From Alphaproteobacteria bacterium (GTDB taxonomy: Bacteria > Pseudomonadota > Alphaproteobacteria > GCA-2731375): a DNA stretch of 64,000 nucleotides. The position numbers were made by a program, and so were the translations under genes. Shown here one piece after another: positions 2,105-45,806 of the stretch (positions are counted from its first letter, which is position 1; each line of letters starts with the position of its first letter). Location of the stretch: NCBI GenBank assembly GCA_965232515.1, contig CBDDPY010000002.1, positions 448,001 through 512,000 of the forward strand, read 5' to 3'. The notes beneath the pieces are model-generated. The model searched no databases. It was given only the letters and a program-made list of their open reading frames with translations, and had not been told where the DNA came from.

Positions 2105-3481
2105 ATGAGCGACGACAATTTCGATCTTTTCGTCATCGGCGGCGGATCCGGCGGCGTGCGCGCCGCCCGTATCTCGGCGACGTACGGGGCGCGGGTTGGC
2201 ATTTGCGAGGAGTACCGCTACGGCGGTACCTGCGTGATCCGCGGCTGCGTGCCGAAGAAGCTGCTGGTCTACGGATCGCACTTCCACGAGGACTTCGAGG
2301 ACGCGGCGGCCTATGGCTGGGACGTGCCGGCCCCGACCTTCAACTGGTCGCGGCTGATCAAGAACAAAGATGTCGAGATCGATCGCCTGAACGCCGTCTA
2401 CCATTCGCTGCTCGAGGGGGTGGGTTGCACGCTGTTTCATCACCGCGGCGTGCTGAAGGATGCGCACACCATCGAGGTGGGGGACCGCCAGATCACGGCT
2501 GAGACCATCCTGATCGCGACCGGCGGGTATCCGGTGAAGCCGGAGATCCCCGGCATCGAGCATGCCATCACCTCGAACGAGGCCTTTCACCTTGAAAGCC
2601 TGCCGTTGCACATCACCGTTGTCGGCGGCGGCTACATCGCCGTCGAGTTCGCCGGAATCTTCAATGGCATGGGCGTCGACGTGACCCAGCTCTATCGCGG
2701 CGAGCAGATCCTGCGTGGCTTCGATCTGGATGTGCGCAACCACTTGGCGCAGGAGATCGTCAAGAAGGGCATTGACCTGCGCGTCGGCAGCAATCCGGCC
2801 CGGATCGATGTCGCGGGCGACGGTTACCTCGTCACGCTCGAGGACGGCGGCACCTTCGAAACCGGCCTGGTCATGTACAGCACCGGCCGCAAGCCCAATA
2901 CATCGGACCTCGGCCTCGAGGCGCTCGGTGTCGAACTCGCCGGGAACGGCGCCGTCAAGGTCGACGAATGGTCGAAGACCTCGGTCGAGCACATCTATGC
3001 CGTCGGCGACGTCACCGACCGCATCAACCTGACACCGGTGGCGTTGATGGAGGGGCACGCCTTCGCCGACACGGTCTATGGCGGCAAGCCGCGCACGCCG
3101 GACCACGAAGACGTCGCGTCGGCCGTGTTCAGCCAGCCGAGCGTCTCCACTGTGGGTTTGCCCGAGCACGAGGCGCGCGAACGCTACGGCGCGGTCGACA
3201 TCTACCGCTCGACCTTCACGCCCATGAAGCACACGCTCTCGGGGCGCGACGAGAAGACTCTGATGAAGCTGATCGTCGACCAGGCGAGCGACCGCGTCGT
3301 CGGCGTGCACATGGTTGGTCCCGACGCGGCCGAGCTGATCCAGGGCATCGCCATCGCCATCAAGTGCGGCGCCACCAAGGCCCAGTTCGACGCCACGGTC
3401 GGCATCCACCCGACGGCGGGCGAGGAGTTCGTCACGATGCGGAGCAAGGTCGAGCCGCCGCGCGCCGAGGCCGCCGAATAG
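2105..3481 (+). CDS. gor: Glutathione-disulfide reductase
   Basis: GGGSGG FAD motif, redox-active GGTCVIRGCVPKK, GGGYIAVEFA, C-terminal GIHPT-EE. Confidence 0.95.
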   Translation: MSDDNFDLFVIGGGSGGVRAARISATYGARVGICEEYRYGGTCVIRGCVPKKLLVYGSHFHEDFEDAAAYGWDVPAPTFNWSRLIKNKDVEIDRLNAVYHSLLEGVGCTLFHHRGVLKDAHTIEVGDRQITAETILIATGGYPVKPEIPGIEHAITSNEAFHLESLPLHITVVGGGYIAVEFAGIFNGMGVDVTQLYRGEQILRGFDLDVRNHLAQEIVKKGIDLRVGSNPARIDVAGDGYLVTLEDGGTFETGLVMYSTGRKPNTSDLGLEALGVELAGNGAVKVDEWSKTSVEHIYAVGDVTDRINLTPVALMEGHAFADTVYGGKPRTPDHEDVASAVFSQPSVSTVGLPEHEARERYGAVDIYRSTFTPMKHTLSGRDEKTLMKLIVDQASDRVVGVHMVGPDAAELIQGIAIAIKCGATKAQFDATVGIHPTAGEEFVTMRSKVEPPRAEAAE

Positions 3482-36643: not shown

Positions 36644-36821
36644 GCGGGTCATTCGCCTTTGCAACGCGGTTGAGTTCTCGGCGAGCCTCGCCCGACCGCC
36701 GGCGCGCGGCAATTACCTCCGGCGTAATCGCTTTGCGGCCGTCAGTCTTTATGGCGATGCAGGCGGCCCGACCGGATGCTATACAGGGCTCGCCAATTCC
36801 AACATCGCGTGACGAGCATCC

Positions 36822-37595
36822 ATGTCGACATCCGCTGACGTCGTAACCGCCTGCCTGATCATTATCGGCGACGAGATCCTCTCGGGCCGCACCAAGGACA
36901 AGAACCTGGCGTATCTGGCCGAGAAGCTGAACGAGACGGGCGTGCGGCTGTCCGAATGCCGCGTGGTGCCCGACATCGAGGCCGAGATCGTCGCCGCCGT
37001 GAACGCCTGTCGGGCCAAGTTCGACTACGTCTTCACCACCGGCGGCATCGGCCCGACGCACGACGACATCACCGCCGACAGCGTCGCGGCCGCCTTCGGC
37101 GTCGGCATCGACTACCACCCGGAAGCCATGGCGCTCCTGCAGGCGCACTACGACAAGACCGGCATGGAGTTCAACGAGTCCCGCAAGCGCATGGCCCGCG
37201 TTCCTGACGGGGCCGAGCTGATCGACAACCCCGTCAGCAAGGCGCCCGGCTTTCAGATCGAGAATGTCTTCGTGCTGGCCGGCGTGCCGGCGATCATGCA
37301 AGCCATGTTCGAGAGCCTGCGGCACAAGCTGGTCGGCGGCAAGCCGGTGCGCTCGGTCGCCATCGCCGTCTATCTCGGCGAGGGCATCATGGCCCCCGGC
37401 CTCGGCGCCCTGCAGGAGAAGTATCCCGACGTCGCCATGGGCTCCTATCCCTTCTACCGCGACGGCCGCTTCGGCACCTCGATCGTCAGCCGCTCCCCCG
37501 ACGAGGAGCGCTTAGCCGACGCCGCCGACGAAATCCGCGCCCTCATGCGCGACCTCGGCGGCGAACCCATCGACGACGAAAACAGCCCGGCCTGA
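36822..37595 (+). CDS. CinA-like molybdopterin-binding domain protein
   Basis: IIGDEILSGRTKDKN, TTGGIGPTHDDIT, NPVSKAPGF, LAGVP. Confidence 0.9.
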   Translation: MSTSADVVTACLIIIGDEILSGRTKDKNLAYLAEKLNETGVRLSECRVVPDIEAEIVAAVNACRAKFDYVFTTGGIGPTHDDITADSVAAAFGVGIDYHPEAMALLQAHYDKTGMEFNESRKRMARVPDGAELIDNPVSKAPGFQIENVFVLAGVPAIMQAMFESLRHKLVGGKPVRSVAIAVYLGEGIMAPGLGALQEKYPDVAMGSYPFYRDGRFGTSIVSRSPDEERLADAADEIRALMRDLGGEPIDDENSPA

Positions 37596-37623
37596 GGCCA
37601 CCTCTCACTCCCCGCCCTACCGG

Positions 37624-37690
37624 GTCATCCTGGCGCCGGCCAGGATCCATTGGGAATCAGCCGTTGATGCTGGCCGTCGCCAGCATGACG
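37624..37690. repeat. Degenerate REP-like family 2 doublet
   Basis: gtcatcctggcgccggccaggatcca (37624-37649) and gatgctggccgtcgccagcatgacg (37666-37690). Confidence 0.6.
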
Positions 37691-37797
37691 GAAATGCGAG
37701 AGTAACTCTGGTGCGAGATGCACCCGACGATTTCCCTCTCCCCTCGCCAACGCGGACGGGTAGGGTGGAGTGCCGATTCCGAATACCGCGTTCCCGT

Positions 37798-37837
37798 GCC
37801 CGCCTGGCGGAATTGGTGGACGCAGGGGACCTTAAAA
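37798..37837 (+). other. Orphan 5' half of a tRNA-Leu(TAA)-like sequence
   Basis: gcccgcc-tg-gcgg-aattggtgga-cgc-a-ggggac-cttaaaa gives an acceptor 5' strand, D-arm and anticodon loop, after which similarity stops. No matching 3' half seen. Confidence 0.75.
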
Positions 37838-37895
37838 GGCTACAGCACCTGCTGCACTAACACGACATTGACCGTCACGACTTGCAACCGCGAAC

Positions 37896-37984
37896 GCCCA
37901 CTTGGCGGAATTGGCAGACGCAACGGGCTTAAAACCCGTAGGTCCGAAAGGACCGTCCCGGTTCGAGTCCGGGAGTGGGCACCA
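37896..37984 (+). tRNA. tRNA-Leu, anticodon TAA
   Basis: Acceptor GCCCACT/AGTGGGC plus A-CCA; D-loop TGGCAGA; anticodon stem ACGGG-CTTAAAA-CCCGT; long variable arm GGTCC-GAAA-GGACC; T-arm CCCGG-TTCGAGT-CCGGG. Confidence 0.96.
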
Positions 37985-38250
37985 CAACGCGGTCGACCTG
38001 AAGGTTGGCTTTCGGCCGAATCTAACCATCGGGGTAACTCCGCCACGACTAGGTCGCTTCAGTTGAAGTCGCTACTCCATAGTCCAAGTGATTCTCTGCA
38101 TCCTCTAGTCATTTTAGAATATACGGTGTTGAATGTGTCTTATGATTGAGTTAATATATCTCAAACCTACTTTTCTAAACTAGAATCGAATTCTGAAGGC
38201 GCTAACTTTGCTATTAATTGAGTGCAGTCCTTTCAACTAAGGAGGGTCGA

Positions 38251-38478
38251 ATGTCTCACAACGAGTATGAAGTCGAATTCACCGTCCGCGCTAGGGACGA
38301 GAGCGGAGAAATGAAGATGCTTGGTTGCGGATGCGGTTGTTCTCTTAACGGAAGTGTTTCTGTAACGAATACTAGGATCGTTGATATCAACCTTGAGGGT
38401 GGTGAGATACAAGTTATGCAATCATCCGTTGATAAGTATCTCAAAACCAAAAAGAAAAAAAATAAGAGAAGAAATTGA
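38251..38478 (+). CDS. 75-aa Cys-motif (GCGCGC) peptide, putative RiPP precursor / radical SAM target
   Basis: AAGGAGG 5 nt upstream of ATG 38251; its TGA overlaps the TTG start of the radical SAM gene; same AT-rich composition as that gene. Confidence 0.72.
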   Translation: MSHNEYEVEFTVRARDESGEMKMLGCGCGCSLNGSVSVTNTRIVDINLEGGEIQVMQSSVDKYLKTKKKKNKRRN

Positions 38479-39848
38479 CCAAGTTCCTTATTCGGAAGGA
38501 ACCATTTGGCGGTGTTGTTTGCAATACGTCGGACAACGACAATGTTCTGTTCGTAAACGCGAAAGCGTATAGCGTCATTAGCGCTATATCTGAACGGAAA
38601 ACCGATCCGGAGATAATTGCACAACTTCAGTCAGCATATGAGAGCTTGCCAGCTAGAAAGTGCCTTTCATTCATATCAAGATATCGCAGGTTGTTCACAG
38701 AACCAAGTGAATGGAATCTTTTTCTCGAGATTGGAGATGAGGACAGCGCGGTCAATTGCGACGCGAAGCGAGCGCCAGCACTGCACATGCCTCTTGATTT
38801 CTATTGGGAAACGACCAGGAAGTGTAATCTTCGTTGCTTGCACTGTTACAACAACTCAGGGCCCTCTGGCGCGCACCCCAACAAGCAACAAATCGAAAAG
38901 GTGTTCGAAGACCTTGATGGGGTATCCCTTCGGACTGTCACTATCTCCGGAGGAGAGGCCCTATTGCGAAAGGATATCCGCGAGATTGTTGAGCGTATGA
39001 GAAAGCAGACGTTCTGTCTCGTGTTGGGCACTAATGGAACGCTAATCAACGATCAAAATGCGGATTGGATAGCCGACAACTGTAACTATGTGAATCTTAG
39101 TCTAGATGCGCCATTCGCCAAAGAATACGACGCTTTTAGAGGAAAAACTGGCTCTTTTTTGGAATGTGAATCCGGTCTAAGGAAATTGCTTTGCCGCGAT
39201 GTTAACATAGTAGCTCAGACGACGATTTCGAAGTACAACATAAACTCTCTGGAAAAACTAGCAGATTTCCTACTTGACTGTGGAGTGTCTCAGTGGTCAT
39301 GTAGATTCCCGTTCTTTACTGGAAACATAAATAATAATAAAGATGTATTCTTGAATAAAAACGAGCAATTATTGTGCCAAAATATTATCGAAAGTGTGTA
39401 CGAAAAATACAAGGCTGAATTTGTTGACCTAGCTCTTGGTCTCAGCATTCCTTGGTCTTATGAAAAGCCGTATCAGAAATTGACCAATAAGAACCGGCAC
39501 GTCTCATGTGCTGCCGGCACTGTCTTGGCCGTACTCCATGCTGATGGAACTATGGCCCCGTGCCAACTTTTCTCTGAGACAGACAATAAGTCGGACCCAA
39601 TTTGGGAATCTAGCATTTACGATCAGTGGCATAATGCAAAATGCTTTGTAGATATGCGCAACATCGAGTTAAAGGAGTTATCGCCCTGTTGGACCTGCTC
39701 GAATGCCAATGCCGGTTGCGGAGGTGGCTGCCGAGCCAGAGCCTATATCAAAGATGGACATTTGTACGGGTCTGACTCTGAATGCGGCTATCGCCCAGAG
39801 AATGCGATCTCCAAAGACGATATTTGTGGACGGCCAGCAGAGCGCTGA
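38475..39848 (+). CDS. Radical SAM/SPASM peptide maturase with probable N-terminal RRE (PqqD/MftB-like) domain
   Basis: CNLRCLHC (CxxxCxxC), SGGEALLR, GTNGTL, SLDA; SPASM C-x12-G-x4-C ... CxxC-x6-C-x3-C ... C; N-terminal IRKEPFGGVV. Confidence 0.9.
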   Translation: MTKFLIRKEPFGGVVCNTSDNDNVLFVNAKAYSVISAISERKTDPEIIAQLQSAYESLPARKCLSFISRYRRLFTEPSEWNLFLEIGDEDSAVNCDAKRAPALHMPLDFYWETTRKCNLRCLHCYNNSGPSGAHPNKQQIEKVFEDLDGVSLRTVTISGGEALLRKDIREIVERMRKQTFCLVLGTNGTLINDQNADWIADNCNYVNLSLDAPFAKEYDAFRGKTGSFLECESGLRKLLCRDVNIVAQTTISKYNINSLEKLADFLLDCGVSQWSCRFPFFTGNINNNKDVFLNKNEQLLCQNIIESVYEKYKAEFVDLALGLSIPWSYEKPYQKLTNKNRHVSCAAGTVLAVLHADGTMAPCQLFSETDNKSDPIWESSIYDQWHNAKCFVDMRNIELKELSPCWTCSNANAGCGGGCRARAYIKDGHLYGSDSECGYRPENAISKDDICGRPAER

Positions 39849-39980
39849 GATCTTGACTCCGTGTTCGGCATGACGCTGCTCGCGTGGACATCCGCAAGGC
39901 AGAAACAGCTGGCTGAAGAGGAAGATCGCTCATGATCCGCGCCGAGCTCGAACAGAAGCGTTGGAGTCAGATTGAGTATT

Positions 39981-40141
39981 GGGGTCTGCCTCGAAACTCA
40001 TGCTGGCCGGGCCAAGCGGCGGGTGAGCAGCACAGCGGAGGCGGCGTAGTGCAAAGCCTCGGCTGCGGCGATGGTGCCTTTGAACTGCTTCGCCTGACTT
40101 CGGTTGCAGTTGATCCCAGTGAAGAAGTGCTTGACCACCCA
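39981..40141 (-). mobile_element. IS5-family (IS1031-like) transposase 3' remnant with terminal sequence
   Basis: WVVKHFFTGINCNRSQAKQFKGTIAAAEALHYAASAVLLTRRLARPA* resembles the IS5/IS1031 C-terminus WVVER-FAWI-RNRRLAKDFE-TI-SAEA-LY-AS--LL-RRLAR. The stop is followed by an IR-like tttcgaggcagacccc. Confidence 0.75.
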
Positions 40142-40142
40142 G

Positions 40143-40399
40143 CAGGATGAAGACCGCGACGATGTCGATGCCAGTGGCGTCGTGCCGTATGGACAACGAT
40201 GTATGGTAGGCAATGGATCACGATTTCCCATGTGCCACGAACCTGCCCGGCCGACCGGCCTCTGGAAAACGCTCCAAGCGTTCAATCGAACGAAACACGC
40301 GTTCGGTGACTGAGCGCGCCGCATCGGGTTTCTTTCTGCGATGTAGTCGCGGATGTTGGCGAGGTCGCTGACCGCAGACAGCTGCCACCGAATTCGTAC
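40143..40399 (-). pseudogene. RelE/ParE-family toxin, frameshifted and 3'-truncated
   Basis: Pieces in successive frames: RIRWQLSAVSDLANIRDYIAERNP / DAARSVTERVFRSIERLERFPEAGRPGR / IHCLPYIVV / RHDATGIDIVAVF. Confidence 0.8.
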
Positions 40400-40410
40400 G
40401 CGGTCCAATG

Positions 40411-40617
40411 CTAAAAGAACGCGCGAACGTCCGCGTGTGTCGCGTAGGCGGCTGGTTCATTGAGGCGGCGGTTGACCTCGGCGACCTGGTCGGGGCTGAG
40501 CTGGAAGCTCGTCGGATCCTGCTCGGCCAGGCTCATCAACAGATCGGCCGCTTCGTCCTGGCGATCTTCCGGCAGGGCGCGGATTTTGACAATCGCCTGC
40601 TCAAGTCGTTTAGTCAT
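40411..40617 (-). CDS. Putative addiction-module antitoxin (68 aa)
   Basis: MTKRLEQAIVKIRALPEDRQDEAADLLMSLAEQD...QLSPDQVAEVNRRL...ATHADVRAFF, directly upstream of the ParE relic. Confidence 0.7.
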   Translation of the reverse strand: MTKRLEQAIVKIRALPEDRQDEAADLLMSLAEQDPTSFQLSPDQVAEVNRRLNEPAAYATHADVRAFF

Positions 40618-40673
40618 GCGGTGATTACAACGGTCAACCGGCTGGACGGCGAGGCGACAGACGAGCAAGCCGG

Positions 40674-41318
40674 TCAGCGGCCAGAGAGACGAGTCCGCGG
40701 ACATCGCTGATCGCGGACGGTCCGTGCCCCACGCCGCCGCCGCTGCGTGACAGCGATGCCGGCGACACCCACCGAGAACAGCAGCAGGGCGCCCGGCGTG
40801 GGCACCTGTACCGCGTCTTTGTTCCAGATCCCGGGGCTGTCGGTGTTGGATGCGCCGACAACCACGAAGAGCGCGATGTCGACAACCTGATCGGGTGTGC
40901 AATCGACGAAGCCGAGCGTGAGCGTTACTCCCGGCGCATTGCAGGTCAGCAGGAGCGTCAGGATCGAATCGTCGAACGCCAGGGCGCCCCAATTCACGAT
41001 CTCGAGCTGGTCGTCGAAGTCGAACGAGAAATCCGAGACGACGCCGGGCGTCGTGCTGCTGATCGTCAAGGGGCCAACGTCCGTCGATACGGCCAGCGAA
41101 AAGGCAGCAACGTCGGTCTTGTTGGTCTCGCCCGGCGTCGGCAGCGTGGCGAATTCGACAAAGCCGCTGATACGGTCGTCGGTGTCGATCGGCAGGCCGT
41201 CGGAAATCGTGTCGAAGCCGTTGCCGACATAGTTGTAGATAACCGCCCCCTGGGCATGAAACGCCAGGCCGACAGCGGCCGTCAGGGCGCACGTCAGCGC
41301 CATTACGTGTCTGATCAC
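40674..41318 (-). CDS. Secreted PEP-CTERM-type (VPTPG) surface protein
   Basis: GTG after GGAGG; signal peptide; acidic Thr/Asp-rich body; C-terminal VPTPG, TM helix, RRRR. Confidence 0.8.
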   Translation of the reverse strand: MIRHVMALTCALTAAVGLAFHAQGAVIYNYVGNGFDTISDGLPIDTDDRISGFVEFATLPTPGETNKTDVAAFSLAVSTDVGPLTISSTTPGVVSDFSFDFDDQLEIVNWGALAFDDSILTLLLTCNAPGVTLTLGFVDCTPDQVVDIALFVVVGASNTDSPGIWNKDAVQVPTPGALLLFSVGVAGIAVTQRRRRGARTVRDQRCPRTRLSGR

Positions 41319-41465
41319 CGGAGCCTCCGTTGTTCTAATTCTCCCGTCGTCGGCGCGGCTTTCGATTCTTAGGCACGGCCATGTTTCAGTTCGATGTCCG
41401 CCCATCCCCCACAAGATGTTTTCCATCGGCCCCTCGCGCTATAACGGAGGCAGGAGGACATCAGC

Positions 41466-42326: not shown

Positions 42327-42827
42327 TCAGCTCTCGACGGGCTCGGCGACGGCGCGGTCCTGCTCCCAGCCCTCGTGCTGCAGCACGATGCGCTCGATTG
42401 CGACCTCGTTGCCGTTCGCGTCCAGCTCGGGCAGGGCTTCGAACTCCGAAACCCAGGCACGGAAGATCATATAGCTCAGCACCACGTTGCCCTGCTGATT
42501 CAGGAGGTCGATACGCAGGTCCTTGCGGAAGTTTTTCAACGACATCGCCCCGTCCCCCTGCGGACTGTAGGCCAGCTCGGCCCAGTCGCGGAACGTCGTG
42601 TCGTGGGTGATGCCGCGCTCCAGCACGATGGGATCGAACGATGTCGCGCCCGGCGCCGTCAGCAGGTGGCTCGGCATGCGGCCGTCGCGGTGCAGCACCA
42701 CTTCCGTGCGCCGGCGCAGGCCGCCGATACGCGAGACGCCGGCGACGACATCGCCGTCCAGGATTAGCTGGAACTTGAAGCTCTTATAAGGATCGAGGCG
42801 ATGCGGGTTCGCGGGAAACGGGACCAT
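42327..42827 (-). CDS. Contractile tail tube protein (T4 gp19 / eCIS Afp1-5-like)
   Basis: RLDPYKSFKF, VAGVSRIGGL, EVV-HRDG, PG...IVLERGIT, FRKDLRIDLLN, RAWVSEF, LDA...VAIERIVLQHEG. Start at ATG 42827. Confidence 0.9.
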   Translation of the reverse strand: MVPFPANPHRLDPYKSFKFQLILDGDVVAGVSRIGGLRRRTEVVLHRDGRMPSHLLTAPGATSFDPIVLERGITHDTTFRDWAELAYSPQGDGAMSLKNFRKDLRIDLLNQQGNVVLSYMIFRAWVSEFEALPELDANGNEVAIERIVLQHEGWEQDRAVAEPVES

Positions 42828-42862
42828 GAATATGCTCCATTCCTGTCGACGGCCGTGCGTCG

Positions 42863-44047
42863 TTAGTTGTGGCTGTCGGCGGTGCGCTGTTGAATACGTA
42901 GGATGACGAACTCGGCCGGCCGCACGGGCGCGAAGCCGACTGTGATGTTGACGAGACCCTGGTCGATGTCGGCCGCGGTGTGGGTGCCGCGGTCGCACCG
43001 GACGAAATAGGCGTCGCGGGGCGTGGCGCCCTGAAAGGCGCCGTTGCGGAAAAGCAAATGCAGGAACGAAGACACATTCAGCCGGATCTGGGCCCAGAGC
43101 GGTTCGCCGTTCGGCTCGAACACGGTCCATTGCACACCGGTCTCGATGCTGGCCTCGATAAACAGCGCCAGCCGCCGCACCGGCACGTAGCGCCACTCGG
43201 CGCCGCTGCCGGCAGGCTCCAGGCTGCGGGCGCCCCAGGCGACGATGCCGGCGCCCGGAAACGTCTTGATGACGTTGACCGAGCGATCGGTCAGACGCGC
43301 CAGATCGGCATCGCCGACGTCGGTCTCCAGGCCGCTGACACCGAATAATCCGGCGTCGACACCTGCCGGCGCTTTCCAGATACCGCGCTGTCTGTCGGTC
43401 CGGGCGTAGAGGCCGGCGATGCTGCCGCCCGGCGCGATCGCCCGGTCGCCGGTCCGTTTGCCGGGCGTCGTGGTCAGCAGCCGCGGAAAATACGTCGCGG
43501 CGTTGGCATGACGCAGTTTCGGGTTTGCCCGCAGCCAGGCCGTGACCGCCCGCGATGTGCGCCGGATTTTATCGCCATGCGGAATGTCATGCAGATAGAT
43601 CATGCGCCGCCGGTCCGCGTGGCCGACCGCGGCCGCGGCCACCTGGCCGGCTTCGGCGGCGGTCATGCGCGCCGTGTCGGGGGTCAGCAGCAGGTCCGCC
43701 GTGTCGGGCAGGGCGTGCAGCCCGGTCCCGCGATCTGCCCGGCCGATGATATCGCCGGCCCGGGCGGACGCACCCTTTCGACGTGAGTTCGACTTTGCAC
43801 GGACGATCCAGGCGCTCCGGCCGCCATTGGCGAAGAACTGCCGCACTGCCAGTGGAGCCTCCAGATCGCTGGAATCGGCGGCAAAGATCTCCGCCAGCTC
43901 GGCCGTCGAGGTGATTCGCACGACCTGGTCTACCGGACCCCGGGGAAAGGTCCCGACAATGGCGGCCACCCCGGTCTGCCGGCCGGCGATGGGCCGGATG
44001 CCCGGGGAAAGCTCTTGGACATAGACCTCCGCAGTCGTCAGCGTCAC
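42863..44047 (-). CDS. Contractile tail sheath protein (T4 gp18 / eCIS Afp2-4-like)
   Basis: VYVQEL...RGP, FFANGG, AGLYARTD..RGIWKAPAG, WGARSL, WRYVPVRRL, FEPN.EPLW, GFAPVRPAEFVI. Probable GTG start at 44047 after GGAGG. Confidence 0.92.
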   Translation of the reverse strand: MTLTTAEVYVQELSPGIRPIAGRQTGVAAIVGTFPRGPVDQVVRITSTAELAEIFAADSSDLEAPLAVRQFFANGGRSAWIVRAKSNSRRKGASARAGDIIGRADRGTGLHALPDTADLLLTPDTARMTAAEAGQVAAAAVGHADRRRMIYLHDIPHGDKIRRTSRAVTAWLRANPKLRHANAATYFPRLLTTTPGKRTGDRAIAPGGSIAGLYARTDRQRGIWKAPAGVDAGLFGVSGLETDVGDADLARLTDRSVNVIKTFPGAGIVAWGARSLEPAGSGAEWRYVPVRRLALFIEASIETGVQWTVFEPNGEPLWAQIRLNVSSFLHLLFRNGAFQGATPRDAYFVRCDRGTHTAADIDQGLVNITVGFAPVRPAEFVILRIQQRTADSHN

Positions 44048-44564
44048 GAACGCTCCTCCCATGATCTCGGGCTGCGCCAAATGGTGGGACGACGCGGCCA
44101 TTGGGAAGATTTACCGGGGTCAAGCAAAGCTTCGAATGAACTGCTTCACATCCTCGACAAAGACCAGGCTAGTCATAGAGGACGCTGCCCGCCGACCAAG
44201 ATACGGGCAGGCGTGAACAGGTCGTGTGACCGGTTGACCCATGTAACGGGCAAGTCGAGCAAACCGGTCCGCGGTCGTGCAAGCGGATGTCGATTTGACG
44301 CTTCACGAGCCCCGATGCGCGGCATCGGTACGGCGTCACGACCCGACTTTGCGTTAACCAGTCTTTTACTCTTGTCCCTCAGTGTGGCGCGCGCGGGCTT
44401 GTGGATAACCCGTTTGACCAACGTTGAGGACTGCGAAGCAATTGTATCGGAACTGCCCGCTCCCTACGGATGACGTTCTCATTCTTGCTCAAAGCACATC
44501 CACTCAAAACCCTTACTCCACTCCAATCAACAACATCATCATCATCAGCACAGAGGTGTGAGAG

Positions 44565-45806
44565 ATGCCGAAGAAGGTTGTAACGGCCAGGGCCAAGAAA
44601 AAGCCCGTCAAGGCCAAAGCTGCCGTTCGCAAAACGGCCGCGAAACGAACGAGCACCGCGCGCAAGCGCGTTGCCGCTAAGCGCGTGACCGCCCGCAAGA
44701 GCACCGTCCGCCGCGCCAGCACGGCCCGGAAGACGACTGCCAAGAAGCGTCCGGCCGCGAAGAAGAGCACGGCTCGCAAGACGACCGCGCGCAAGACGAC
44801 GGCCCGCAAGACCGTCGCCCGGAAGCGCCCGGCCGCCAAGAAGACGACCGCCCGGAAGACGACGGCTCGCAAGACCGTCGCCAAGAAGCGTCCGGTCGCC
44901 AAGAAGCGCACCGTCGCGAAGAAGAGCACGGCTCGTAAGACGACCGCGCGCAAGACGACGGCCCGCAAGACCGTCGCCCGGAAGCGCCCGGCCGCCAAGA
45001 AGCGCGTCGTTCGCAAGTCCACGGCCCGTAAGTCGACCGCTCGGAAGACTGTCGCCCGGAAGCGTCCGGCGGCGAAGCGCACCGTTCGCAAGTCGACCGC
45101 TCGGAAGACCGTCGCCCGGAAGCGTCCGGCGGCGAAGCGTACCGTTCGCAAGTCGACCGCTCGGAAGACTGTCGCCCGGAAGCGTCCGGCGGCGAAGCGT
45201 ACCGTTCGCAAGTCGACCGCTCGGAAGACTGTCGCCCGGAAGCGTCCGGCGGCGAAGCGCACCGTTCGCAAGTCGACCGCTCGGAAGACCGTCGCCCGGA
45301 AGCGTCCGGCGGCGAAGCGCACCGTTCGCAAGTCGACCGCTCGGAAGACCGTCGCCCGGAAGCGTCCGGCGGCGAAGCGTACCGTTCGCAAGTCGACCGC
45401 TCGGAAGACTGTCGCCCGGAAGCGTCCGGCGGCGAAGCGTACCGTTCGCAAGTCGACCGCTCGGAAGACTGTCGCCCGGAAGCGTCCGGCGGCGAAGCGC
45501 ACCGTTCGCAAGTCGACCGCTCGGAAGACCGTCGCCCGGAAGCGTCCGGCGGCGAAGCGTACCGTTCGCAAGTCGACCGCGCGTAAGACTGTTGCGCGCA
45601 AGCGCGTGGTCGCCAAGAAGCGTCCGGCCGCGAAAAAGCGTACGACCGCTCGTAAGGTCAGTGCGCGTCGGCCCGTCCGCAAGGCGAGCGCGCGTAAGCG
45701 CGTGTCGATGAAGCGGGCTCGCCGTCCTGTCGCTCGGAAGATCAGCCGGGCCCGGACCGTGAGCCGGCGTTCGGTCGCCAAGCGGTCGATGCGGAAGGCT
45801 GCTTGA
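44565..45806 (+). CDS. Histone H1-like, Lys/Arg/Ala/Thr-rich basic protein (Hc2/HctB-like)
   Basis: GAGG SD; 413 aa of KKxxARK-type pentapeptides with no Asp/Glu or aromatic residue seen; hairpins downstream. Confidence 0.85.
   Translation: MPKKVVTARAKKKPVKAKAAVRKTAAKRTSTARKRVAAKRVTARKSTVRRASTARKTTAKKRPAAKKSTARKTTARKTTARKTVARKRPAAKKTTARKTTARKTVAKKRPVAKKRTVAKKSTARKTTARKTTARKTVARKRPAAKKRVVRKSTARKSTARKTVARKRPAAKRTVRKSTARKTVARKRPAAKRTVRKSTARKTVARKRPAAKRTVRKSTARKTVARKRPAAKRTVRKSTARKTVARKRPAAKRTVRKSTARKTVARKRPAAKRTVRKSTARKTVARKRPAAKRTVRKSTARKTVARKRPAAKRTVRKSTARKTVARKRPAAKRTVRKSTARKTVARKRVVAKKRPAAKKRTTARKVSARRPVRKASARKRVSMKRARRPVARKISRARTVSRRSVAKRSMRKAA
45030..45590 (+). repeat. 60-bp coding tandem repeat, about 9 copies (RKSTARKTVARKRPAAKRTV)
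   Basis: Nine consecutive 60-nt lines (45061-45541) begin agcgtccggcggcgaagcg and differ mainly at two synonymous sites. Confidence 0.97.

Follow-up and report, generated by a model that had tools for sequence, protein, structure and literature searches.

A predicted two-gene peptide-modification cassette: a CxCxC peptide beside a radical SAM/SPASM enzyme in an alphaproteobacterial genome

Does a short open reading frame (ORF) that runs into the gene of a radical S-adenosylmethionine (SAM) enzyme encode the substrate of that enzyme and, if so, what would the enzyme make of it? The question is raised by positions 38251..39848 of a 64,000-nucleotide (nt) stretch of DNA, here called the window, from an Alphaproteobacteria bacterium (GenBank assembly GCA_965232515.1, contig CBDDPY010000002.1, forward strand, 448,001 to 512,000). 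A preliminary description of the window had proposed a new ribosomally synthesised and post-translationally modified peptide (RiPP) system at this place. Judged from sequence, the two genes are a real, intact cassette of a rare, uncurated RiPP family, and the 75-residue peptide is very probably the substrate of the adjacent enzyme. They are read as precursor and maturase because a RiPP recognition element (RRE), a radical SAM domain and a SPASM region, together with an adjacent and co-evolving Cys peptide, form the standard RiPP signature. The favoured reading of the whole, towards which the balance tips somewhat, is a self-contained two-gene cassette that would make a ladder of three thioethers.

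The peptide gene (38251..38478 with its stop codon, plus strand) encodes 75 aa and starts with an ATG 5 nt downstream of a Shine-Dalgarno sequence, AGGAGG (38240..38245, plus strand), just as first described. The gene call draws on the ORF itself, a 12-peptide alignment and a HMMER match at E 3.6e-19. A search with the window peptide alone returned only its self-match. A HMMER profile of the peptides, run over 1.84 billion representative proteins, gave 13 matches at E <= 0.001, nine of which are peptides of 58-86 aa (E <= 5.4e-6) and six of these new; a word-index search with the peptide profile added two further members. In four long proteins (P0128, P0133, P0134 and P0135; 954-2161 aa) the profile matches 3-10 repeated stretches, mostly at CGCGCS-GSVSVT positions, and these are probably repeat or low-complexity matches. 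No model of Pfam or NCBIfam matches the window peptide, the lachnocin model reaches one of the 12 family peptides at a non-significant E of 0.021, and the ESM Atlas holds nothing for the peptide.

The core of the window peptide reads C26-G-C28-G-C30-SLNG-S35-V36-S37-V38-T39 (38326..38367, plus strand), as delimited by peptide alignments and Cys counts. Across the 12 aligned peptides (window numbering) Cys 26, 28 and 30 are invariant, as are Val 36 and Val 38; positions 35 and 37 are Ser or Thr in every peptide, and position 39 is Thr, Ser, Tyr or Ile. Exactly three Cys are present in 11 of the 12, the fourth Cys of P0129 sitting in what is a probable false N-terminal extension. The family motif is C-x-C-x-C, with G, A, S, Q or E at x, then a loop of 2 or 4 residues and then [ST]-V-[ST]-V. 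From the last Cys to the first Ser/Thr the loop measures 2 residues in 10 peptides and 4 (S-L/Q-N-G) in the window peptide and P0131; being the sole length variation in the core, and falling precisely where the Cys strand gives way to the [ST]V strand, it behaves as expected of a hairpin turn. Both flanks of the peptide are conserved as well, the leader through an F-T-V-x-R stretch and the C-terminal end, in most peptides, through E-x-S-V-L-x-L. Two features singled out at first are narrower than the family. The GCGCGC motif is present in the window and generalises to CxCxC among relatives, and the poly-Lys end, which the window peptide does have (C-terminus ...KNKRRN), is peculiar to it and not conserved. 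An AF2 model of the peptide alone has a mean predicted local distance difference test (pLDDT) value of 62, with core residues 25-37 below 50, and is uninformative on the hairpin register. A lipobox reading of 'MLGC' in the peptide was rejected, there being no signal peptide and no conservation, and so was a double-Gly leader cleavage site, none of which is conserved in the peptides.

The second gene (38475..39848, plus strand) encodes 457 aa from a TTG start and is called an RRE-fused radical SAM/SPASM maturase on ORF, Pfam, alignment, AF2 and profile evidence. Homologues have N-termini that fit this TTG start (MTKFLIRKEPFGG compared with MSDFLLRREPFGG and others). The radical SAM cluster motif C117-x3-C121-x2-C124 (38823..38846, plus strand) is invariant in 17 of 17 aligned subfamily members, and so are the seven C-terminal Cys of the SPASM region (345, 363, 405, 408, 415, 419 and 437; 39507..39785, plus strand), which bears out the CxxxCxxC and seven-Cys SPASM pattern noticed earlier; C390 is found in at least 90% of members. 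The SPASM CX2C-to-C spacing is x6 in this enzyme and x5 in canonical SPASM domains. Pfam places Radical_SAM PF04055 on the enzyme at 68.1 bits (cut-off 29.5) and Fer4_12 at 36 bits; SPASM PF13186 gives 17.6 bits for the window enzyme, under its cut-off of 21.5, and matches 14 of the 17 members at E <= 1. Among 5.8 billion protein clusters the enzyme has a clearly set-off subfamily of 19 (P0002-P0020; E 1e-193 to 1e-57, 31-62% identical), the next protein following at 2.7e-39. Their source names are 'radical SAM protein', 'radical SAM protein with 4Fe4S-binding SPASM domain' and, for P0017, 'AdoMet-dependent heme synthase'; the source of P0016 is Rhodoplanes. The ESM Atlas offers only generic radical SAM/SPASM clusters.

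Among the best 25 of 78 matches of the enzyme in NCBIfam release 20, NirJ2 scores 147 bits against a cut-off of 500, WgkB 137 against 650, ScmE 132 against 400, AhbD 118 against 500, MftC (TIGR03962) 95 against 265, PqqE (TIGR02109) 82.6 against 381, StsB (NF045574) 79.8 against 625, PapB 77.5 against 340 and AlbA 68 against 850. The enzyme is a SPASM enzyme outside every named family among those 25. The MftC/PqqE-like core of the preliminary description is a weak likeness (95 and 83 bits) and not the nearest, NirJ2, WgkB and ScmE standing above it and all of them far under their cut-offs. An AF2 model of the enzyme, built on the 17-sequence alignment (mean pLDDT 82), shows N-terminal strands and helices, then the radical SAM barrel, then the SPASM region. 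Its best fold matches in the PDB are SkfB (6efn), SuiB (5v1t) and CteB (5why/5wgg), then BlsE, PqqE and TigE (8vpo, rank 12), and the subfamily profile finds the solved structures of SkfB at 1e-24, SuiB at 2.2e-20, PqqE at 1.3e-18, CteB at 2.9e-16 and TigE at 1.3e-7.

The N-terminal part of the enzyme (~residues 1-90; 38475..38744, plus strand), which had been likened to an RRE from the start, is predicted to be a fused PqqD-type RRE. The AF2 model has strands at 4-9, 12-17 and 24-27 and helices at 29-39, 44-54 and 60-75 (pLDDT ~77-93 over residues 4-75), and the domain includes an invariant R7-x-E9-x-F11-G12 strand. The alignments of the subfamily profile to SuiB (query 2-420) and CteB (query 14-219) run through the N-terminal RRE regions of both. 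Pfam PqqD PF05402 matches 5 of 17 subfamily members at E <= 1 (best E 5.7e-5) and gives no match at E <= 1 on the window's own enzyme, so the assignment comes from fold and profile evidence, not from the window enzyme's own Pfam score.

Adjacency to the peptide is kept well beyond the window. Genome and metagenome contig scans used a generic radical SAM pattern and returned mostly distant relatives, with at least three subfamily loci from metagenomes (L081-L083). A CxCxC peptide ORF lies upstream in four of the four subfamily loci with upstream DNA, i.e. the window, L082, L083 and L192 of genome G663, which upholds the earlier expectation that close homologues of the enzyme would have a conserved upstream Cys-motif peptide. 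Genome G663 was found by searching the family of a Bradyrhizobium metagenome-assembled genome and encodes P0016 exactly. A Shine-Dalgarno sequence precedes all four ORFs (AGGAGG in the window, GGAGG in L082, AAGGAGG in L083, AGGAG in L192). The ORF of L082 has 58 aa (...AECACGCSGSVSVTVYVS...) and ends 4 nt before the enzyme; that of L083 has 62 aa (...KSCSCSCSASVTVYYS...) and lies ~322 nt upstream, and that of G663 has 59 aa (...ILCQCSCANTVTVYYS...) and lies ~181 nt upstream. Translational coupling of the two genes, as first proposed, thus applies to the window, where the peptide stop TGA (38476-38478) overlaps the enzyme start TTG (38475), but the overlap occurs in the window only and is not conserved. 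An inverted repeat, GGACGCG-n6-CGCGTCC, was noted by eye in the 181-nt spacer of G663 (L192 ~2945-2975, minus strand) and may be an attenuator setting the peptide-to-enzyme ratio.

The motif follows the enzyme subfamily closely. In a six-frame translation of 194 records (1.395 Mb), the four subfamily loci are the sole places with C.C.C.{1,6}[ST]V[ST]V, and none of the ~186 records with more distant radical SAM/SPASM relatives holds the CxCxC-[ST]V[ST]V motif. Peptide type, as far as sequence goes, tracks enzyme clade: the peptides of L083 and L192 share CxCSCxx[ST]VTVYYS and their enzymes both belong to the P0012-P0016 group; the enzyme beside the L082 peptide resembles P0017. Peptide P0131 (~50% identical to the window peptide) and radical SAM protein P0002 (62% identical to the window enzyme), each from a single JGI contig of 8600 nt, are probably a fifth peptide-enzyme pair. 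Co-folding of enzyme and peptide, carried out without control runs, scored 0.11 against a mark of 0.32, a value that weighs neither for nor against the pairing.

It is conceivable, though very improbable, that the two genes are not a pair at all, the short ORF being an independent Cys-containing (metal-binding) small protein or non-functional and the radical SAM enzyme acting elsewhere, e.g. on a tetrapyrrole. The best NCBIfam scores are indeed of NirJ2/AhbD type (147 and 118 bits), and the source name of the relative P0017 is that of a heme synthase. These scores, however, are far under the cut-offs of 500, and heme-type enzymes come without an RRE whereas the subfamily has one throughout; a comparison aimed at heme-type radical SAM enzymes (NirJ/AhbD) excluded the window enzyme on both grounds. 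Moreover, the enzymes of the paired loci are only 34-38% identical and their genomic surroundings unrelated, so the adjacency is hard to explain without a functional link.

Even if the peptide is the substrate, it could be consumed, in the manner of mycofactocin or PQQ, as the precursor of a small-molecule redox cofactor, with few of its residues reaching a diffusible product. This carries the lowest probability of any explanation considered. The architecture of PqqD-type RRE and radical SAM/SPASM enzyme agrees with it, as do the weak hidden Markov model similarity to MftC (95 bits) and PqqE (83 bits) and the place of PqqE among the top structural and profile matches. The scores nevertheless lie far under the cut-offs (265 for MftC and 381 for PqqE), and in both genomes the neighbourhood of the pair contains no gene for a peptidase, dehydrogenase or glycosyltransferase. 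Conservation, moreover, extends over the entire peptide, as a disposable scaffold would not require. The peptide also lacks the MftA C-terminal Val-Tyr and the PqqA Glu/Tyr core, a point on which the preliminary description was right. Mycofactocin (MftA/B/C) and PQQ (PqqA/D/E) biosynthesis are alike in setting a PqqD-type domain and a radical SAM/SPASM enzyme on a small neighbouring peptide; they differ in their motifs and accessory genes, both absent here, and in that the RRE is fused in the window enzyme, whose scores stay under the cut-offs.

The best functional analogue is the StsA/BlaA group of hairpin sactipeptides. According to the available parts of PMC10288494, the StsA core is CxCxCx4GxGxG, StsB is an MftC-like radical SAM enzyme and StsC a separate RRE protein; the sactionines made by StsB in StsA are C2-G15, C4-G13 and C6-G11, a nested hairpin, and the evidence for them is a shift of -6 Da, the absence of an alkylatable thiol and deuterium at exactly those six residues. 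Runs of CxCxC recur there in predicted precursors of the RumMC, 'Hypervariable Sacti' and StsA/BlaA classes, e.g. ...CACGCAGGAGAGAG... (PMC10288494). StsA/StsB/StsC and BlaA/BlaB (NF045558, NF045574; Precord et al. 2023) share with the window family three alternating Cys, a loop and three alternating partners, and StsB is, like the window enzyme, a radical SAM/SPASM enzyme served by a PqqD-type RRE. The window peptide, CxCxCx4SxSxT, has a spacing identical to that of the StsA core with Ser/Ser/Thr for Gly; in other family members the loop is two residues shorter and the side-chain alternation is kept. Ser and Thr serve as sactionine acceptors in other sactipeptides. By this analogy we lean, if only slightly, to thioether formation as the chemistry; the connectivity of the ladder and the attacked carbon are put forward with less confidence than thioether formation itself.

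In such a scheme the RRE of the enzyme would dock the peptide leader via the conserved F-T-V-x-R stretch, and the radical SAM core with two auxiliary SPASM [4Fe-4S] clusters would cross-link the peptide core. The product would carry three nested Cys thioethers, C30-S35, C28-S37 and C26-T39, which would lock a beta-hairpin ladder around the SLNG turn and leave a peptide lighter by 6 Da (-6 Da) with zero free thiols. The cassette itself would have arrived by horizontal transfer next to tRNA-Leu.

The differences from the StsA group are considerable. With 79.8 bits against a cut-off of 625 for the StsB model, the window enzyme is a distant relative of StsB. The partners in StsA are Gly, whereas the window family has Ser/Thr interleaved with invariant Val, [ST]V[ST]V[TSYI], and contains no GxGxG. 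Its peptides exceed StsA in length and conserve both a leader and a C-terminal strand. StsB comes from Streptomyces (PMC10288494); by source name, the hosts of the window family include Rhodoplanes.

Several points weigh against the three-thioether cassette. The enzyme is, by its scores, not close to StsB and about equally distant from NirJ2, WgkB, ScmE and AhbD, whose chemistries are quite different, so thioether formation cannot be read from enzyme similarity. The acceptors presumed from the motif are Ser/Thr and not Gly, and the RRE forms part of the enzyme, unlike the free-standing StsC. The StsA model gives no match to the window peptide, and its single match among the 12 family peptides, at E 0.067, is not significant. 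The two invariant Val and the conserved leader and C-terminal strands are unexplained by a simple sactionine ladder and could point to other target residues. DNA context is at hand for four loci, the other eight peptides being tied to the enzyme family only by sequence family and similar rarity. At one further locus, L081 (1-1478), the enzyme is truncated and without an upstream peptide gene: it shares ~75% identity with P0006, begins at the position matching ~residue 106 and so has no RRE, and abuts an HU gene on the other strand and a tRNA-like sequence, leaving no room for a peptide; it is a truncated remnant or an assembly join. Finally, chemistry and peptide binding are for every family member predictions from sequence and analogy.

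A different chemistry on the same substrate-enzyme pair is a possible but clearly less probable explanation, in which the enzyme acts on the invariant Val or on Ser/Thr. Options include conversion of Val to cyclopropylglycine as in TvgB/TigE, ether or C-C cross-links and epimerisation, with the three Cys serving for metal/cluster ligation or disulfides. V36 and V38 are as invariant as the Cys, positions 35 and 37 always hold hydroxyl residues, and TigE (8vpo) is among both the fold and the sequence matches (rank 12; E 1.3e-7). RS-SPASM enzymes turning Val into cyclopropylglycine are known (PMC10878394 and PMC9062424, in the parts available). The enzyme, being equidistant from many SPASM chemistries, leaves room for this. 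The match to TigE is, however, much weaker than those to SkfB, SuiB, PqqE and CteB. Known Val-cyclopropanation substrates have repeated TVGG-type motifs, in contrast to the single [ST]V[ST]V here. The Cys triplet is invariant and in 11 of 12 peptides accounts for all the Cys, and the CxCxCx4 spacing is that of a proven thioether donor motif (StsA, in the available parts of PMC10288494).

Other RRE-bearing maturases place the favoured thioether cassette in a wider setting. The sacti- and ranthisynthases of solved structure SkfB (6efn) and CteB (5wgg/5why), and SuiB (5v1t, which forms a Lys-Trp cross-link), have the same order of RRE, radical SAM barrel and SPASM region and a peptide encoded next door; they differ in that the window enzyme is 15-18% identical to them, the precursor motifs are unlike and no NCBIfam model comes near its cut-off. 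SCIFF-type ranthipeptide cassettes are likewise minimal, a peptide and a radical SAM/SPASM enzyme that seldom come with a protease or exporter of their own. Their peptides, which occur in Clostridia, contain six Cys over ~45 residues; those of the window family have exactly three Cys and another motif. The CrpA/CrpC system of Methanococcus voltae uses a SPASM radical SAM enzyme, itself predicted to contain an RRE, to form ranthionine thioethers in a Cys-rich protein and not in a short, cleaved peptide (PMC13692751, available parts). Compared here by description only, CrpA/CrpC offers a precedent for a stapled small protein and differs in being archaeal and in its larger, Cys-rich substrate (PMC13692751).

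What would become of the modified peptide is suggested by the genes around it. No protease, exporter or immunity gene lies beside the pair in the window or in G663, i.e. in either genome context, in keeping with the first observation that no protease or transporter is adjacent. Because of this absence, and because both flanks of the peptide are conserved, the end product may be a whole stapled mini-protein of 60-75 residues and not a cleaved, secreted antibiotic; the suggestion in the preliminary description of a modified small protein fits the same facts, judged from the sequences. A related alternative, which we consider unlikely, keeps the uncleaved and unexported mini-protein of 60-75 residues and gives it an undescribed cross-link, e.g. 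from Cys sulfur to a Ser/Thr or Val side-chain carbon in [ST]-V-[ST]-V; it would be an intracellular stapled beta-sheet protein, perhaps handling redox or metals, spread between distant bacteria as a two-gene module.

The cassette is rare. Outside the window's own genome, where the enzyme gene is single-copy, a subfamily enzyme was found in 1 of ~1,300 genomes searched. No true member was found in 60 relatives, including all 32 other genomes of the order, and sets of 400 more genomes from the class and 400 from the phylum contained no subfamily enzyme; the family of genome G430 has one in 401 genomes, and the genus of that match one in 17. Neither a scan of viral contigs nor a tblastn search of plasmids gave a subfamily member, the best plasmid matches being GDL-motif maturases of ~25% identity. 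A match in the relative G002 (2.8e-46) was rejected as a different, 434-aa radical SAM protein without the N-terminal domain, at a locus without a CxCxC motif. Within the window the pair is alone in a low-GC islet (37985..39850, 1.9 kb) with a GC content of 0.45 against 0.656 for the whole window, and the G663 pair has 0.59-0.65 against 0.70 in its surroundings. Because of this GC contrast and the patchy, rare occurrence, the two-gene islet was probably acquired by horizontal transfer, as far as composition and distribution tell.

The left border of the islet is a tRNA-Leu gene (anticodon TAA; 37896..37984, plus strand; ARAGORN, and Rfam tRNA at 58.5 bits for 37896-37981), directly past which GC falls from ~0.62-0.68 to 0.44. 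Around the islet neither an integrase nor an att-like direct repeat of the tRNA-Leu 3' end was found. No consensus promoter or terminator was found around the window pair, and none in the intergenic region of L083. A 39-nt copy (77% identical) of the tRNA-Leu 5' half lies at 37798-37836, 98 nt upstream of the intact gene; ARAGORN and Rfam make no tRNA call there, and it may be a tRNA fragment from an earlier integration or duplication.

Upstream of the tRNA-Leu gene lie an amidase, a methionine aminopeptidase, SfsA and a MoCF/CinA-like gene; downstream of the pair follow weak ParE-like and antitoxin-like ORFs, a PEP-CTERM protein and a hydrolase. In G663 the pair is flanked by UDG and ETF-QO on one side and by an RsmE-type methyltransferase, UbiA and IclR on the other. 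The two adjacent minus-strand ORFs right of the islet in the window (39998-40408 and 40411-40710) match ParE_toxin at E 0.033 and Unstab_antitox at E 0.029, both weakly, and are possibly a decayed toxin-antitoxin pair at the edge of the islet. The ORF at 40674-41426 (minus strand, 250 aa) has a weak C-terminal match to the PEP-CTERM sorting signal (E 0.032). Some 2.5 kb downstream, at 42327-44101 (minus strand), genes for a T4 gp19-type tail tube protein (E 1.3e-32) and a tail sheath protein are part of a contractile tail/injection-system cluster or a prophage remnant. The 413-aa Lys/Ala/Arg-rich protein of 44565-45806 (plus strand) has many tandem ARKTVARKRPAAKRTVRKST-type repeats and matches the histone H1-like nucleoprotein HC2 at E 7.5e-43.

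In a second sample with the same organism label (X3), about half of the islet's sampled words were recovered, on short contigs (36800-41200), and one contig joins unlike sequence at 38376; low coverage or a variant arrangement are both possible. Two RNA runs from samples not listed as containing the stretch gave 0 reads there, which has no bearing on expression, and two runs of unrecorded type that do contain the stretch covered it.

Is the system then new? Neither protein reaches a curated cut-off in Pfam or NCBIfam release 20 (for the enzyme, among the best 25 of 78 NCBIfam matches). No published description of the peptide-enzyme family was found in the full-text literature, subscription-only papers and the supplementary information figures of PMC10288494 lying outside its reach, and the 3,421-precursor table of Precord et al., in the part of PMC10288494 available, has no SVSVT peptide and no Rhodoplanes entry. 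As far as these sources reach, the pair stands outside described families, as had been supposed. The proposal of a candidate new RiPP system is supported to this extent, but the system sits within a known thioether kind and has in StsA/BlaA an analogue that the preliminary description did not name; it is better put as a new variant of the thioether (sacti-/ranthipeptide-like) kind. Uncharacterised pairs of RRE-bearing radical SAM/SPASM enzymes and peptides are common, and new chemistry is not demonstrated here.

In public data the family amounts to ~20 enzyme clusters and about a dozen peptides, with one named isolate lineage (Rhodoplanes). For annotation, relatives now called 'radical SAM protein' or 'AdoMet-dependent heme synthase' would be better described as predicted peptide maturases, and the small ORF as a real gene. 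The sharp precursor motif leads to a specific prediction, namely -6 Da, no free thiols and the links C30-S35, C28-S37 and C26-T39. Should the chemistry differ, the invariant alternation of Val with Ser/Thr would suggest a novel radical SAM reaction. If the prediction is confirmed, StsA-type ladders would gain Ser/Thr acceptors, an enzyme lineage that has a fused RRE and is unrelated to StsB, and a presence in the Gram-negative Alphaproteobacteria, and the cassette would be another compact, protease-free two-gene module for stapled beta-hairpins.

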